From positions 1 to 64,000 of the forward strand of contig JBEULP010000039.1 in the NCBI GenBank assembly GCA_041287245.1: a stretch of DNA of 64,000 nucleotides. The letters run 5' to 3'. The position numbers and the translations under genes were made by a program. This document shows positions 6,532-32,788 of the stretch, piece after piece. Under the pieces are notes generated by a model that had not been told where the DNA came from, did not search any database, and worked only from the letters and a program-made list of their open reading frames with translations. Origin of the DNA: Infirmifilum sp. (GTDB lineage: Archaea; Thermoproteota; Thermoprotei; Thermofilales; Thermofilaceae). Each line of letters starts with the position of its first letter. Position 1 is the first letter of the stretch.

Positions 6532-8031
<1,500 letters not shown>

Positions 8032-8165
8032 TTTTGATCCGGTCGGAAAACCTGCGCACCGCGCCTCACAATCAAAGTAGGTAGATGCAACCCCGGAGGC
8101 ACGTCCTCCCGGGTGAAGGGCGTAAGCCCCCATGCGCCGACATGGGGGATGATGAGCGCCGTGTA

Positions 8166-11298
<3,133 letters not shown>

Positions 11299-12455: not shown

Positions 12456-12591
12456 GCCGGGGTAACTTAGCCTGGCTAGAGTGCCGGACTCATAATCTCT
12501 TGAGCCAGGATAAGATATCCGGTTTGCGGGGGCTCCCCCGCCCGGGGCGCAATGCGCGAAACCCCGGGTTCAAATCCCGGCCCCGGCACCA
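12456..12591 (+). tRNA. tRNA-Met(CAT), elongator type; intron at 37/38 (12495-12516) plus further intron sequence in the variable region; CCA encoded
   Basis: GCCGGGG/CCCCGGC acceptor, CCGGA-CT-CAT-A|A-TCCGG anticodon arm, CCGGG-TTCAAAT-CCCGG T arm; the variable region is 41 nt (12523-12563). Confidence 0.88.
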
Positions 12592-12699
12592 CTCCTTTTA
12601 TCTATCTAGAGCGTGTAGGGCCTCTGTGCCCGCTCGCTTAGAAAAACTTAAAAAATCAAAGAGCAGTAACATTACTGAGATCGACTCTCTCGCAGACGT

Positions 12700-12794
12700 G
12701 CGGCCGTAGTCTAGTCTGGTAGGATGGCGGCCTCCCAAGCCGCAGAGCCCTGTCGACGGCGCGGAGAACCCGGGTTCAAATCCCGGCGGCCGCA
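12700..12794 (+). tRNA. tRNA-Gly(CCC) with 21-nt intron at 45/46 (12746-12766)
   Basis: Full cloverleaf; BHB CCGC-ag^a-GCC...GGC-GCGG-ag^a; removal restores the 5-nt variable loop AGAAC. Confidence 0.95.
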
Positions 12795-23976: not shown

Positions 23977-24873
23977 ATGCGAGATTTAACGGTTGTTTCC
24001 GGCTCTGGATGTTCAGGGTTAGCTTTAGCGGTTTCTAGGCTTCTCAATGTAGTGTTCCAGCCAGTTATTGTGAGAGAGTTTCCAGATGGGGAGCTATATG
24101 TTAGAGTGCCTACCGACGTGAATGGGAGAAAAGTCGTCCTGGTTGAGTGTGCAGGTCGAAGGCCAAACTCGGCGTTCATGGAAACTATTTTCACGGTTAA
24201 GACCCTCATTAAGAAGGGGGCTAGAGAGGTAATCCTCGCTCTTCCCTACTTTCCTTATGCACGCCAGGATGCAGAGTTTAATCCAGGAGAGTCCGAAAGT
24301 CTCCGAATAATCGCAGACCTTCTTAGTGACCTTGGAGTGTCGTCTGTTGTAACAGTTGACATGCACCTGCACAGGTTTAAGAGCATGAATGAGATATTCC
24401 GCATTAAAACCGTTAACGTAACAGCTATGCGTGACCTAGCTCGATATGTTTCCCGAAACTACCCGGGGGTCTCCCTCGTTATAGGCCCGGATGAGGAGGC
24501 TGAGCAGTGGGCACGGCTCTTCGCCGAAGAGCTAGGCAGTCCCTACGCGGTTCTAGAGAAGGAGCGGAGAGGGGATGAAGAGGTAACGGTTTCAGGGGGC
24601 GTGGAAGCGAGGGGTCAGGTGGTCATTGTTGATGACATTATAAGCACGGGGGCTACTATAGCTACAACAGCCTCATCGCTGAAGTCCAAGGGCGTCACTG
24701 ATATAATTGTGGCTTGTACCCATGGCTTGCTTGTGGGTGGGGCGGAGTCGAAGATCTTCACTAGTGGTGTTAAGGATATTATAACCTCTGACACCATAAC
24801 GAATCCTTTCGCTAAGGTAAGCGTTGCACCTTCATTGGCAGATGGAATAGCTAGGGTGGTGCTCGATGGATAA
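23977..24873 (+). CDS. prs: Ribose-phosphate pyrophosphokinase
   Basis: FPDGELYVR, PYFPYARQD, GPDEEA, VDDIISTGAT, CTHG. Confidence 0.95.
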   Translation: MRDLTVVSGSGCSGLALAVSRLLNVVFQPVIVREFPDGELYVRVPTDVNGRKVVLVECAGRRPNSAFMETIFTVKTLIKKGAREVILALPYFPYARQDAEFNPGESESLRIIADLLSDLGVSSVVTVDMHLHRFKSMNEIFRIKTVNVTAMRDLARYVSRNYPGVSLVIGPDEEAEQWARLFAEELGSPYAVLEKERRGDEEVTVSGGVEARGQVVIVDDIISTGATIATTASSLKSKGVTDIIVACTHGLLVGGAESKIFTSGVKDIITSDTITNPFAKVSVAPSLADGIARVVLDG

Positions 24874-25831
24874 AGCCGAATACGTGGAGGCTATAAATAG
24901 GATTAGAACTGGAAAGATACACAGCTCTTCAGAAGTTGTGTTCTTCGCCCTCGATAAAATGCTCCAGGTTCTTGCTGAGGAGAAAAAGCTTAGCAAGTTC
25001 GCAGAGTTCACGCTTCAACTAGTAAAGTCCCGTCCAACAAGCGCGCTCTTAATAAATGTTGCCCGCGAGCTGTCTAGAGAAATAATTGACCACAAGGAGG
25101 AATCCATAGATGGTATCATAGAGCATGCCACCCGGAAAGTCGATGAGCTCAAGAAGCGTATTCAAACATCGGTTGAGCTCTCTGCAGGTATAGCTGAAAA
25201 AAGAATAGAGTCGGGAGACACCATTTTAACAGCCTCCTATAGTCTCTTCGTAAAGAAAACAATCGAAAATGCCCTTAGAAAAGGAAAAGAAATAAAAATT
25301 ATTGTCACAGAGTCCCGCCCAGGTAGTGAAGGTCTTAGGATGGCATCAGAACTCGTCTCGCTAGGTTGCGACGTCACCTTAATCGTGGACTCTGCTGTAA
25401 GATTTGTCATGAAAAATGTTGATAAGGTTCTCTTATCCTCGGAAAGCGTCACGGCTAATGGTGCCAATGTGAACAAGATAGGCTCAAGCCAGATTGCATT
25501 GGCAGCCCATGAGGCGCGGGTAAGGGTCTTCGTAGTAACCACAACTCTGAAGTTTAGCCCTGAAACAATCGTAGGTGAAATGATAGAGATACCTGAGGCT
25601 GACACTTCTGAGATTCGAGAACTCTTAGAGAAGAAGGGTCTAGATAAGGTTAAGGTTAAAGCCCCCCTATTTGACGTTACACCCCCCGAATACATCGACG
25701 CTATAATAACCGAGAAGGGGCTCGTAGCCCCATCCTTTGCAATTATGACGGTCAGAGACCTATACGGGTGGCCACCCCGTCCACTCCTTTTAGACGAAAG
25801 TCTAAGAGAGTTGCTAGGGGTTGATAAATGA
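24866..25831 (+). CDS. eIF2B alpha/beta/delta-family protein, predicted catalytically inactive
   Basis: SRPTS, VTESRP, NKIGS and FDVTP retained; IRGA, THC and GAD replaced by IHSS, TAS and SSE. Confidence 0.85.
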   Translation: MDKAEYVEAINRIRTGKIHSSSEVVFFALDKMLQVLAEEKKLSKFAEFTLQLVKSRPTSALLINVARELSREIIDHKEESIDGIIEHATRKVDELKKRIQTSVELSAGIAEKRIESGDTILTASYSLFVKKTIENALRKGKEIKIIVTESRPGSEGLRMASELVSLGCDVTLIVDSAVRFVMKNVDKVLLSSESVTANGANVNKIGSSQIALAAHEARVRVFVVTTTLKFSPETIVGEMIEIPEADTSEIRELLEKKGLDKVKVKAPLFDVTPPEYIDAIITEKGLVAPSFAIMTVRDLYGWPPRPLLLDESLRELLGVDK

Positions 25832-26811
25832 GTTTTAGTGTTCCCGAGGAGGTCTATAAAATAGCAAACGATATAAAGGAAATGAGGATTAGAGGGGCTG
25901 GGAGAATAGCTAGAGCGGCAGCTACCGCTATAATGATAGCTGTAGAAAAATATCAGGGAGAGGATTTAGAAGTTTTCAAGGATTATGTCAGATATGTCGC
26001 AGACTACCTCGTCAAGACACGCCCAACAGCCGTCTCCCTACCCAATGCAGTTAGCTTCGTGATAAAGCCTCTACAGGTGGGCCTCCACATCAAGGATGTG
26101 GAGGAGGCAAAGACGATCATAATAGATCGGGCTCAGTCTTTCATTAAATACTCGGAGGAAGCGCTCGCTAGAATAGCCGAGATTGGTAGCAGGGTAATAC
26201 AAGATGGCGACAACATCTTGACGCATTGTAATAGCCAAGCAGTAGCTTCGATAGTTCAAAAAGCTATCCAACAAGGGAAAAACATCCAGGTATTCGCCAC
26301 GGAAACCCGCCCGCTCTTCCAGGGACATATTACCGCCAAGATGCTCCTGGAGGTCGGAGCGGATGTAACATTGATTCCTGATTCAAGCGTCAGAACCATA
26401 ATCCGCAGGATAGACAAGGTGATAGTCGGCGCAGACACTGTAACGGCTAACGGCGCTGTAGTAAATAAGATCGGCACGAGCATGATTGCCCTAATTGCCC
26501 ACGAGCGTGGAACAGATTTCTACGTAGCCACTGAAACCTATAAGTTCAGCCCCTTAACCGTATGGGGGGAGCCAGTCATAATTGAAGAACGTCCTCCCAC
26601 CGAGGTTGTTTCCCAAGAATTTCTAAATCAAAACCCCCGTCTCAAAGTGCTCAATCCGTCTTTCGACGTTACCCCCTCTGCCTATATAAGAGGGATTATC
26701 ACGGAGATAGGTCTTATCCCACCGAATGCAGCGCTTCTTGTCCTAGAAGAGGTTTATGGGCGGGAAACTATGCACGAGACGCTTCACACAGTAGAGGAAG
26801 AAATATCCTAA
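25828..26811 (+). CDS. Ribose 1,5-bisphosphate isomerase
   Basis: MRIRGAG, TRPTAVSL, LTHCNS (catalytic Cys), VGAD (catalytic Asp), NKIGT, NPSFDVTP. Confidence 0.9.
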   Translation: MSFSVPEEVYKIANDIKEMRIRGAGRIARAAATAIMIAVEKYQGEDLEVFKDYVRYVADYLVKTRPTAVSLPNAVSFVIKPLQVGLHIKDVEEAKTIIIDRAQSFIKYSEEALARIAEIGSRVIQDGDNILTHCNSQAVASIVQKAIQQGKNIQVFATETRPLFQGHITAKMLLEVGADVTLIPDSSVRTIIRRIDKVIVGADTVTANGAVVNKIGTSMIALIAHERGTDFYVATETYKFSPLTVWGEPVIIEERPPTEVVSQEFLNQNPRLKVLNPSFDVTPSAYIRGIITEIGLIPPNAALLVLEEVYGRETMHETLHTVEEEIS

Positions 26812-26856
26812 GGAGGTAATCGATAAACCTAAGTGTCTGAGCTATAATAGTTATAT

Positions 26857-27471
26857 ATGGCTGGTAGTAGGCTGAAGATAGCTAATATTTCCTGGTCCGA
26901 GCTTTATAGGGATACTGTCGAGCTATCCAAGAAAATTTTGGTAAGTGGATTTATTCCTCAGAAGCTGGTCGTTATTGCTAGAGGAGGGCTAGTTCTCGGC
27001 AGGCTGTTATCCGACCTTTTAGGGGTTAAGGATATCACTATTATTCCTGTATCGTTCTACCAGGGCATCGGCTCTACTAATGAAAAACCCGTGATATTGA
27101 AAGAGATTGACGATAAAAACCTTGGAGGGAAAGTTGTCTTAATAGTAGACGACATAGTTGACACGGGTGAAACTCTTCAAGCAGTACTCGAGTATGTGCA
27201 AAGGTTTAATCCCAAGGAGCTCAGAAGTGCCGCTCTCTATGTGAAACCCTGGGCGAAAATTTTACCAGACTATTTCGTTAGGGTCGTAGATGTATGGGTG
27301 GTTTTTCCATATGAGTTACGAGAAACTCTTGAGAAACTACCGGAAGAGTATGTGGAGCTTCTAAGCCTAGATGCTGAAACAATAGAAGATATAAAAACTA
27401 TCGAAGAGTATACTAGAAACAAAGCACAGTACAATGAAGAAGTTGAAGGGAAGAGCAATGGATTACTCTAA
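26857..27471 (+). CDS. Purine phosphoribosyltransferase (type I PRTase)
   Basis: IARGG, VLIVDDIVDTGETL, WVVFPYE. Confidence 0.9.
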   Translation: MAGSRLKIANISWSELYRDTVELSKKILVSGFIPQKLVVIARGGLVLGRLLSDLLGVKDITIIPVSFYQGIGSTNEKPVILKEIDDKNLGGKVVLIVDDIVDTGETLQAVLEYVQRFNPKELRSAALYVKPWAKILPDYFVRVVDVWVVFPYELRETLEKLPEEYVELLSLDAETIEDIKTIEEYTRNKAQYNEEVEGKSNGLL

Positions 27472-28021
27472 CTTATTCGCAAAATTCTTGGATGAGCTTT
27501 TAAGTCGAGATTTGGAACCGTTAGAGAAAGACTTCTATGAGAAAATCGTAGAGGAGCTTCGGAAAGCGAAAAATGAAGATAAAATATCTAGAAGTGTTGC
27601 CGTTACGCTTAGGTTTCTCTTTATTCTAAGACTCATTAAAGAGCTGGAAATTCTCTACAGGGGCTCTACACTAAATCTTGAGGACCTTCCCTCCTTAGAG
27701 AGAGAAGTTTTATCTAAGGTTACAGAGGCACTACGCTCGCTAGTACCTCAATACCCTTCGAGAGAGTTGCAGGTGAAACCCTCTGAGGCTAAGGCAACCG
27801 AAGATAGGCATGAGCCCCAACCCCAAGATAAAAAAACAGAGGAGAAAACCCTTGTATTTTTCCTTCAGCCCTATCCTCGCATCATAGATCGCAATATTAT
27901 CCTCGGTCCCTTTAACAAGGGGGATATTGCCTTTATCCCTAAGCGTCTAGCGAAGGATCTCATAGCATCTGGTTACGTTGAAGAAATTGCTGAGGGCTCA
28001 GGAGAACAGCGAGAAGGCTAA
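27458..28021 (+). CDS. GINS subunit Gins15/Gins51-like
   Basis: LEPLEKDFYE A-domain and LGPFNKGDIAFIP..A..LI..G B-domain. Confidence 0.8.
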   Translation: MDYSNLFAKFLDELLSRDLEPLEKDFYEKIVEELRKAKNEDKISRSVAVTLRFLFILRLIKELEILYRGSTLNLEDLPSLEREVLSKVTEALRSLVPQYPSRELQVKPSEAKATEDRHEPQPQDKKTEEKTLVFFLQPYPRIIDRNIILGPFNKGDIAFIPKRLAKDLIASGYVEEIAEGSGEQREG

Positions 28022-28078
28022 TCGCGCATGGTAACCAAAACTAAATATAGTGGCTATGAGCTCTCGTATGAGAAAAGT

Positions 28079-28513
28079 ATGTCTAGCGTTGAAAACGAGT
28101 TTCCATCTTATGATGAGCTCCTCGAAAGGGCGTATAAGTTATTGCCAAAGCGTAGGCCAAAATCGACGGGGGAGAGGTTTACACTGCCACGTTTTGAAGT
28201 AACGGTAACCGGTAAAAGAGTATACATCACTAACTTTAAGGAGGTTGCTGAGATGCTAAATAGAGATCCCCATACGCTGCTCCGCTTTCTACTTAAAGAG
28301 ATAGCTCTTCCAGGTACCTATGAAGAAAACACCGCTGTTATTCAGGGAGAAGTCTCCCCCCAGCTCCTCAACAAGCTACTCGAGAGGTTCTTCAATGACT
28401 ATGTGAAGTGTCCTATCTGTGGAAGCCCTGACACGCTCCTTATAAAAGAGAAAAAGATAATGCAGATTAAGTGCATGGCTTGTGGAGCTGTTTCGCCGGT
28501 AAAACCATTTTAG
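28079..28513 (+). CDS. eif2b: Translation initiation factor 2 subunit beta
   Basis: YDELLERAY, ERF.LP, ITNF, YVKCPICGSPDT...CMACGA zinc ribbon. Confidence 0.95.
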   Translation: MSSVENEFPSYDELLERAYKLLPKRRPKSTGERFTLPRFEVTVTGKRVYITNFKEVAEMLNRDPHTLLRFLLKEIALPGTYEENTAVIQGEVSPQLLNKLLERFFNDYVKCPICGSPDTLLIKEKKIMQIKCMACGAVSPVKPF

Positions 28514-31638: not shown

Positions 31639-31923
31639 ATGAGGCCTTTAGGGAAAGTTAGGCTATATACGCGTAACAAAAATCTCTTGGTTGAAGCACA
31701 CGAGGCACCATCAATTGGTGTGCCCGTCTATGATGAGAGAATGGCACAAATCGGGTACGTCTATGATGTTATAGGTCCGGTAACGGCTCCTTTTGTCCTT
31801 GTTAAGGTGGATGAAAACCGGCATAAACCAGAAGCCTTTATCGGGAAGCTACTCTATTGGAGAGGGGCTCCTCAAAGACCTGCAAAGAACAAGAAGGGTG
31901 TTAGATCCCATGGTGGACATTGA
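31639..31923 (+). CDS. H/ACA RNP protein Gar1
   Basis: IGYVYDVIGPVTAPFVLVK. Confidence 0.88.
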   Translation: MRPLGKVRLYTRNKNLLVEAHEAPSIGVPVYDERMAQIGYVYDVIGPVTAPFVLVKVDENRHKPEAFIGKLLYWRGAPQRPAKNKKGVRSHGGH

Positions 31924-32788
31924 ATGTCCCAACTGCAAGACCCGTCGCCCTCCCCTGTTTAATCCTGATACCGGAGAGTATGTCTGCCCTGTCTGTGGAT
32001 TTGTATACGGGTCTACACTGGAGCCATATGTCCCAAGGTCTCGAGACGACTATCAACGGAAGGTTCATAGTGAAAAAATGCTTAAGAATCCTGATACCAC
32101 GCCCAGGTCTGTTTCTCAGCAGCACCCCTTTGCGAGTAGAATGCTAAAACAGGATATGAAGAAGAGTATAGCATATGACACGTATATTTCCAGCATTCAA
32201 AAGGAGTTTAATATTCCCGCTTATATCATGGAAGAGGTTCAAAGGCTGTTCTGGAAGCTTCACAGCGGGAAGATTCTGAGAGGGCGAAGCCATAAGCTTG
32301 TGATAGCCACCCTGTTATACACTGTGTCAAAGAAATACCCGAATGTTCATTTTACACGCGAGGCTTTAGAGAAAATAGCCTCAAGCGACATTAAGAAAAT
32401 TTACCGTTTCTACCGCTTTCTAATAAAAAACGGCTATATTGAACCCGTAAAGACATATATGCAGCAAGAGTTGAGCCAGCATTTACCGGTTATTCTTAGC
32501 AGGTTAGAGCATGAGTTGAAGAGGAACAGGCAGCAGAATAAAAATGTCGCTTTCTTCCAGAAGATCCCTAAGAATTTAATCGCGAAGACTGCAGAAAATT
32601 TCTCCTCGAATTTATATGGGGCAAAGCCAAATGGTATAGTAGCTGCTACAGTCTACTTCTACATGAGGTTATGTGGTGTGCGTGTTAACCAGGATATAGT
32701 GGCGAGTCTATCTGATGTTTCCCCGCTAACTATCCGTAGGATAATCAAACAAATTTTAGACAAGGCTGATATAACAATACACTTGTGA
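31910..32788 (+). CDS. Divergent transcription factor B (TFB/TFIIB) family protein
   Basis: CPNC...GEYVCPVCG zinc ribbon, LRGRS, two cyclin-like repeats, GAKPNGIVAA, QDIVA...VSPLTIR; start reassigned to ATG 31910. Confidence 0.8.
   Translation: MVDIECPNCKTRRPPLFNPDTGEYVCPVCGFVYGSTLEPYVPRSRDDYQRKVHSEKMLKNPDTTPRSVSQQHPFASRMLKQDMKKSIAYDTYISSIQKEFNIPAYIMEEVQRLFWKLHSGKILRGRSHKLVIATLLYTVSKKYPNVHFTREALEKIASSDIKKIYRFYRFLIKNGYIEPVKTYMQQELSQHLPVILSRLEHELKRNRQQNKNVAFFQKIPKNLIAKTAENFSSNLYGAKPNGIVAATVYFYMRLCGVRVNQDIVASLSDVSPLTIRRIIKQILDKADITIHL

Follow-up and report, generated by a model that had tools for sequence, protein, structure and literature searches.

A Conserved Non-catalytic Paralog Encoded beside Ribose-1,5-bisphosphate Isomerase in Archaea Is a Candidate AMP-Binding Subunit of a Mixed Hexamer

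An Intact and an Altered Isomerase Gene in Tandem

The window analyzed here, the first 64,000 nucleotides (nt) of contig JBEULP010000039.1 from the archaeon Infirmifilum sp. (Thermofilales, Thermoproteota; assembly GCA_041287245.1), encodes two adjacent paralogs of the IF-2B protein family: P0002, a predicted ribose-1,5-bisphosphate isomerase (R15Pi), and P0001, in which the catalytic residues are replaced and which, with its orthologs, is referred to below as the dead copy. The two reading frames overlap by ATGA at 25828–25831, as an earlier reading of the window from its letters (the sequence-only reading) had reported.

24866..25831, forward strand: P0001, non-catalytic R15Pi paralog, 321 residues, assigned from residue states, profile scores, and an AlphaFold model
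25828..26811, forward strand: P0002, R15Pi, 327 residues, assigned from its TIGR00511 score and residue states

Residue numbers and roles follow the description of P. horikoshii PH0208 in PMC5789824. P0002 carries the isomerase motifs IRGA, THCNS, and GAD that the sequence-only reading had picked out, scores 381.8 bits on the R15Pi model TIGR00511 (cut-off 314.1), and keeps Cys135 and Asp204 together with the phosphate-binding residues Arg22, Arg65, Gln166, Lys215, Ser137, and Lys240; by these sequence features it is an R15Pi. Rubisco and adenosine 5′-monophosphate (AMP) phosphorylase are encoded in the same genome, so the nucleoside monophosphate (NMP) shunt is complete there. A third IF-2B-family member, which is MtnA-like, sits on another contig (C29); on the MtnA model TIGR00512 (cut-off 279 bits) P0001 reaches 113 and P0002 213.9 bits.

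P0001, 41% identical to P0002 across 255 residues, bears IHSS, TASYS, and SSE in its translation and retains VTESRP, NKIG, and FDVTP. Alignment to PH0208 bears out the proposal that both catalytic positions are lost (C135S and D204E), and identifies two further pocket changes, R22H and Q166E, with Arg65, Ser137, Lys215, and Lys240 retained. Its TIGR00511 score (236.5 bits) lies below the cut-off, and on the aIF2B-alpha model NF006210 (cut-off 339) it scores 114.5 bits, under the 181.3 of the active copy. The AlphaFold model of P0001 (predicted local distance difference test score 92) matches PH0208 best (template modeling score 0.87; eIF2B chains 0.67–0.81) and contains predicted C-terminal helices at 289–300 and 309–319; a search of the ESM Atlas returned IF-2B/R15Pi clusters only. 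P0001 is neither a chance frame nor a decaying pseudogene, because throughout the order its orthologs are open over their full length; they also carry invariant residues. An assembly artifact was rejected, the tandem also being found in single-contig genomes, as was an assignment of P0001 to the PH0440-type aIF2B proteins, given its score far under the NF006210 cut-off.

Distribution of the Pair

The sequence-only reading had made its proposal depend on the tandem being conserved, and the pair is kept far beyond the genome of the window. Orthologs of P0001 occur in 38 of the 41 genomes of the order and stand in tandem with R15Pi in 36; in the remaining two the dead copy lies at a contig end, and the three genomes without a full hit are 79–90% complete. 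The pair is present in cultured Thermofilum and Infirmifilum species, and the nearest proteins with a named source, 71–77% identical, mark the window as Thermofilum/Infirmifilum-like. Within the class, families f10, f11, and f13 hold a P0001 ortholog, and 70 genomes of families f9, f12, f14, and f15 have neither gene. In a sample of the phylum, 138 of 401 genomes were matched at E ≤ 1e-60, with at least two matches in 50, and the tandem recurs in Desulfurococcales and Bathyarchaeia. In a further phylum, probably Asgard, intact and altered R15Pi genes are arranged head to head in 18 of 201 genomes. An active enzyme and a conserved non-catalytic paralog are thus kept together, as had been suggested.

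Clustering at 90% identity left 82 of the 145 pairs. In all 82 the dead copy is upstream and on the same strand, and in 80 its stop codon falls 37–89 nt ahead of the IRGA motif of the partner. No fused dead and active forms were found among proteins of 595–2000 residues, which is weak evidence; an apparent fusion frame of 674 residues in genome G017 was rejected as two abutting genes. At one bathyarchaeal locus (L199:5247–8214) the two genes are separated by prs, with the dead copy on one side and the active R15Pi on the other. Two genomes in the Asgard-phylum sample (G458 and G550; loci L163/L231 and L294) share an almost identical dead copy that branches early, retains Gln166, and scores above the TIGR00511 cut-off; these loci lie on contig ends or short contigs, and their linkage and binning are uncertain.

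Residue Conservation in the Dead Copies

Residue counts refer to the 82 non-redundant pairs. Copies were called "active" if they have His-Cys and Asp, and the full conservation of these columns in active copies follows from that definition. Cys135 is present in none of the 82 Thermoproteota-type dead copies, where the position is Ser, Thr, Gly, or Ala throughout, and the position of Asp204 is Glu in 67 and Asp in 15. Gln166 is replaced by Glu in 73, and Arg22 is found in nine. By comparison, Arg65 (82/82), Ser137 (81/82), Lys215 (79/82), and Lys240 (82/82) are retained, a pattern in which the contacts to the 5-phosphate are kept and those to the 1-phosphate are lost. The same pattern has been described for eIF2B-alpha (PMC5789824). 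Residues new to the pocket are themselves conserved (Tyr in 84%, Glu at the Gln166 position in 89%, and Glu at the Asp204 position in 82% of dead copies), and together with the four retained side chains they point to ligand binding.

The likeness to eIF2B-alpha proposed for P0001 extends in part to its pocket, which keeps the Tyr, Glu, Asn, and Lys. Against the human fructose 6-phosphate site (PMC8187479; human numbers mapped by homology), P0001 has the equivalents of Tyr130, Glu198, Asn208, and Lys234, with Leu for Arg132 and Ser for Gly196. Among the dead copies these positions match in 69 (Tyr130), 67 (Glu198), 53 (Asn208), 82 (Lys234), 11 (Arg132), and 58 (Gly196) cases. Conservation is uneven along the chain: the C-terminal domain has a mean identity of 53%, and the N-terminal domain is the least conserved part, at 23% versus 45–52% in active copies.

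Complementary Loss of the AMP Site

AMP activates R15Pi at a site formed by three subunits, one of which supplies Arg124, Arg229, Trp231, and Asp290, and it is described as a stabilizer of the PH0208 hexamer (PMC5789824). P0001 retains the whole set of AMP-site residues Arg124, Arg229, Asp290, Asn209, Arg190, and Lys194. In P0002 the face contributed by that one subunit (chain A) is absent (R124V, R229G, W231D, and D290R); Asn209 and Arg190 are retained and Lys194 is replaced by Arg, leaving no complete one-chain AMP site, and a hexamer contact is changed as well (E287A). The complete set is not universal in the family, Trp231 and Lys194 varying in unpartnered enzymes too.

The division seen in the window recurs among the pairs. 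Dead copies retain Arg124 in 80, Arg229 in 82, and Asp290 in 81 of 82 cases, and each is present in 24 of 24 unpartnered enzymes, whereas the partnered enzymes retain them in only 51, 55, and 69 of 82. One or more of these residues have been lost by 42 of 84 partnered enzymes from Thermoproteota and by 12 of 12 from the Asgard phylum (54/96 in total), compared with none in the three unpartnered sets (0/24, 0/4, and 0/30; 0/58 in total); locus L208, in a phylum with Hadesarchaea, was used for a non-Asgard set. A scan of all alignment columns found only Arg124, Arg229, and a borderline Ala to be conserved in dead copies and unpartnered enzymes and relaxed in partnered ones. The loss amounts to 12 changes on the tree. 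This complementary distribution of AMP residues, as read from the alignments, fits a hetero-oligomer.

A clade of R15Pi-like proteins common in the Asgard-phylum sample (L121–L126, L292, L293, and L296–L313) keeps the Cys and Asp; Gln takes the place of Arg22 in most members, and most are without Arg229. The clade is distinct and possibly has another substrate or another form of regulation.

Proposed Mechanism and Alternatives

We consider it moderately probable that R15Pi forms a mixed hexamer here, in which the dead copy serves as a subunit without catalytic function and carries the AMP regulation. P0001 and P0002 would co-assemble through their C-terminal domains, as in the homohexamer of T. 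kodakarensis and P. horikoshii, with P0001 supplying the face of the AMP site that P0002 has lost. AMP would sit at the three-subunit junctions, one side of which would be formed by Arg113, Arg218, and Asp278 of P0001 (own numbering), so that AMP activation, and probably hexamer stability too, would now depend on the dead subunit. The rebuilt pocket of P0001, in which the 5-phosphate contacts are kept and the 1-phosphate contacts are replaced by Glu, with a Tyr/Glu arrangement as in eIF2B-alpha, may bind a pentose 5-phosphate or an NMP, and this ligand would provide allosteric control in addition to that by AMP. Such a complex would probably serve to gate AMP/NMP flux through ribose 1,5-bisphosphate (R15P) and Rubisco to 3-phosphoglycerate, and not to regulate translation.

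Several observations weigh against a mixed hexamer. Half of the partnered enzymes from Thermoproteota (42/84) retain all three AMP residues, and the partner is therefore not needed for the AMP face there. Only two phylogenetically independent pairs lie on well-supported branches, too few to assess the contrast between partnered and unpartnered enzymes for significance; "unpartnered" moreover denotes a single match at E ≤ 1e-60 or a single R15Pi-grade match, a definition that a divergent partner could escape. Distant R15Pi-like proteins of unknown context are also without Arg124 and Arg229, so that loss of the AMP face may happen without a partner. In family f10 the dead copy and R15Pi are split apart, and in two genomes, 94% and 92% complete, a divergent protein of the dead clade is present but no active R15Pi was found. 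Finally, the altered copies of the Asgard phylum keep the catalytic Cys; because of this, and because the Asp persists in 15 of the 82, some dead copies may have chemistry of their own.

Side observations touch on the same groups. In the Asgard-phylum pairs (L270, L273, L275, L276, and L278–L291) the altered copies that keep the Cys have Glu at the positions of Asp204 and Gln166, and in L278–L291 the intact-looking partner has Tyr in place of the His before the catalytic Cys, with a proteasome-beta-like gene nearby. The divergent dead subgroup (L118, L120, L127, L474, and L476) has a pocket that is rebuilt differently; genomes G330 and G196 encode MtnA and no active R15Pi was found in them, which suggests a separate function for this subgroup.

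It is unlikely, in our judgment, that the paralog instead works apart from R15Pi in a new role, either as a homo-oligomeric binder of sugar phosphates or NMPs or as an enzyme for another substrate, and lies beside the isomerase gene for co-regulation of salvage only. P0001 keeps all AMP-site and most hexamer-contact residues and could form a hexamer of its own, and the conserved new pocket residues, the divergent subgroup without an active R15Pi, and the retention of Cys in the Asgard-phylum copies would all suit such a protein. However, it would leave the specific loss of the AMP face from the active partner unexplained. An enzymatic role is also at odds with the absence of a conserved acid/base pair, the Cys position being Ser, Thr, Gly, or Ala in every Thermoproteota-type dead copy, and with the finding that C135S abolishes catalysis by PH0208 (PMC5789824).

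That the dead copy is purely structural, fixed by neutral complementary decay to stabilize the hexamer and sensing nothing new, would accord with the way in which partnered enzymes have lost interface residues step by step, differently in each lineage, and with the described stabilizing effect of AMP, but seems very unlikely given the near-invariant Ser137, Lys240, Arg65, and Lys215 and the conserved Tyr and Glu gained in the pocket, which point to ligand binding.

Phylogeny

In a FastTree analysis of 362 rows, the dead copies of Thermoproteota and of the Asgard phylum form one clade (support 92); in a separate tree built without the active-site columns the clade has 78, and eIF2B-alpha again falls outside it. 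A careful tree of 44 rows places the dead clade (96/97) within an R15Pi-like group (99/94) that excludes eIF2B-alpha, and an approximately unbiased (AU) test on these rows rejects a tree in which eIF2B-alpha is forced to group with the dead clade (p 0.002). A quick tree of 85 rows using all columns recovers the dead clade at 90 and eIF2B-alpha with aIF2B-like proteins at 97, with these two groups as sisters at 92; on these rows the forced tree, which lies 15 log units above the quick free tree, is not rejected (p 0.666). The sequence-only reading had likened the pair to the eIF2B regulatory subcomplex, and a phylogeny of the IF-2B family was a check that it had named. The dead copies form one clade within R15Pi; eIF2B-alpha lies outside it in the best tree, with the two AU tests in disagreement.

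The eIF2B-alpha rows were taken from metagenome contigs by way of a motif (116 loci, of which 12 long open frames were used, six of them in the small tree). A scan of viral contigs for the eIF2B-delta motif returned none, and since alpha alone was recovered, it is the only eIF2B subunit that the trees cover. The rows called aIF2B-like fall under the NF006210 cut-off and are set apart as a separate clade, their identity with PH0440 being tentative. Profile comparisons place the dead copies no closer to alpha or delta than active enzymes are: a dead-copy profile gives 152 bits on eIF2B-alpha and 166.5 on delta, versus 152/181 and 151.5/170 for active-enzyme profiles, with a small excess on eIF2B-beta (139 versus 127/125). 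Four short (259–284 residues), highly divergent non-catalytic IF-2B proteins (L095–L098), from families f14 and f15, which have no R15Pi, are nested among the dead copies in the FastTree run; they were excluded from the IQ-TREE runs as probable long-branch artifacts. The best model for L095 is the aIF2B-alpha family, far under its cut-off.

Taken at the level of sequence, these trees are read as one old duplication, probably parallel to that of eIF2B. A bolder version is that the two copies arose before Thermoproteota and Asgard archaea diverged and that the mixed hexamer is a surviving intermediate ancestral to the regulatory subunits of eIF2B, which would isomerize R15P, sense AMP and a sugar 5-phosphate through its dead subunit, and perhaps touch aIF2; we regard this as quite improbable.

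Gene Neighborhood and the aIF2 Question

The genes flanking the pair, in the order in which they lie around it, are as follows.

23977..24873, forward strand: ribose-phosphate diphosphokinase (prs), overlapping P0001 by 8 nt
26857..27471, forward strand: purine phosphoribosyltransferase (PRTase)-family gene, which opens a separate PRTase-GINS-aIF2-beta block
27434..28021 (start 27434 or 27458), forward strand: Gins51-like gene, a neighbor outside the module
28028..28513, forward strand: aIF2-beta, a neighbor outside the conserved module

The pair is therefore located, as had been described, between prs and a PRTase gene, followed co-directionally by GINS and aIF2-beta; a gap of 45 nt separates P0002 from the PRTase gene, and NOG1, which is convergent, comes after aIF2-beta. 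A scan for promoters and terminators at the locus gave matches at chance level and no informative signal, and a search of sequencing runs listed none of RNA.

The sequence-only reading had taken this order as a possible link between the pair and aIF2, an idea that finds little support in the comparison among genomes. aIF2-beta was found in 39 of the 41 genomes of the order and adjoins the pair in six of the 36 that have both, all six in the genus of the window, where another genome has it 514 kb from the pair. Neighbor counts used 83 distinct long tandem loci, of which 71 have at least 2.5 kb downstream, and aIF2-beta occurs in three of these 71. No aIF2-alpha or aIF2-gamma gene was found in loci L001–L313 or among the 83 long tandem loci. 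The block is separable: PRTase-GINS-aIF2-beta adjoins the pair only in the genus of the window, and in the sister genus (g4) 3 of the 30 loci inspected carry GINS-aIF2-beta and no pair, with the PRTase gene also present wherever the locus extends that far. aIF2-beta is reported near replication genes in other archaea (PMC2643942). Within 300 nt of the pair, prs is found at 14, Rubisco at six, and AMP phosphorylase at one of the 83 long loci.

An archaeal eIF2B-like complex, responsive to pentose phosphates and tuning translation through binding of aIF2, would find favor in the position of aIF2-beta 1.2 kb downstream in the window, in the eIF2B-alpha-like pocket of the dead copy (PMC8187479), and in the AU test on 85 rows. 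Binding to aIF2-alpha is reported for archaeal aIF2Bs that are non-catalytic (Dev et al., 2009, cited in PMC4787765), and R15Pi of Haloferax was purified together with aIF2 subunits (PMC8576121); the function is described as unclear in a review (PMC7531240). Against it stand the adjacency confined to one genus, the absence of aIF2-alpha and aIF2-gamma nearby, the NF006210 score of P0001 below that of its active neighbor, and the best-supported tree with its AU rejection. The eIF2B subunits bind eIF2-alpha through the N-terminal domain (PMC5789824), and this domain is poorly conserved in the dead copies. We hold such a complex to be highly doubtful, and the link between the pair and aIF2 is probably incidental.

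Elsewhere in the window, a 16S-23S rRNA operon (6532–11274) accounts for a GC-rich stretch, two tRNA matches within 12456–12794 (133 and 95 nt) exceed the model length and probably contain introns, and an open reading frame at 31793–32788, 3′ of a Gar1-like gene, was labeled by eye as TFB-like with a zinc ribbon.

Relation to Known Systems

For both genes the closest relative in fold, sequence, and structure is R15Pi of the TK0185/PH0208 type (TIGR00511; PDB 3A11, 3VM6, and 5YFJ), which P0002 resembles in its catalytic Cys and Asp, its phosphate-binding side chains, and the pathway genes present in the genome. In contrast to the known R15Pi enzymes, homohexamers in which a single type of chain carries every AMP-site residue, catalysis and the AMP face appear here to be split over two paralogs. 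The eIF2B alpha2(beta-delta)2 assembly is a hexamer derived from an R15Pi-like enzyme, with non-catalytic subunits (PMC4787765), and the hetero-hexamer proposed here would resemble it in this; eIF2B-alpha and the dead copy share the pocket Tyr, Glu for Asp, Asn, and Lys, which in eIF2B-alpha belong to a site that binds sugar 5/6-phosphates (PMC4787765; PMC8187479). However, all three eIF2B subunits are catalytically dead and bind eIF2, whereas the archaeal pair includes one intact enzyme and has no conserved aIF2 link, and eIF2B-alpha is without the AMP-face arginines that the archaeal dead copy keeps. The archaeal aIF2B proteins (PH0440/TK1047 type; NF006210; PDB 1VB5) resemble P0001 as IF-2B-family proteins without catalytic residues. 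They differ from it in being without the C-terminal alpha-12 helix used for hexamers (PMC4787765), a C-terminal helix being present in the P0001 model; P0001 is far below their model cut-off, and the aIF2B-like sequences obtained form a separate clade.

No description of a non-catalytic R15Pi partner was found in the open-access literature searched, although the tree of Dev et al. (2009) could already contain members of the clade. A preprint on a Bathyarchaeota metagenome-assembled genome (bioRxiv 10.64898/2026.09.21.753380) reports two adjacent isomerase-like genes by a form I-alpha Rubisco; its accessible text treats both copies as isomerases and says nothing of catalytic residues being lost, of the pair being widely conserved, or of the two proteins forming a complex. 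R15Pi is reported in Thermofilum and Desulfurococcales in PMC9700705, the accessible part of which does not mention a second copy.

The regulatory core of eIF2B is thought to derive from a homohexameric R15Pi whose subunits, after duplication, ceased to be catalytic but still bound ligands (PMC4787765). The archaeal pair looks like a half-way state toward such a complex, one that was not found described in the literature searched. If the mixed hexamer is real, many genes annotated as "eIF-2B" or "R15P isomerase" would be mis-assigned, some dead copies passing the TIGR00511 cut-off; R15Pi in these archaea would be a two-subunit enzyme, and assays of single genes may miss its regulation by AMP.

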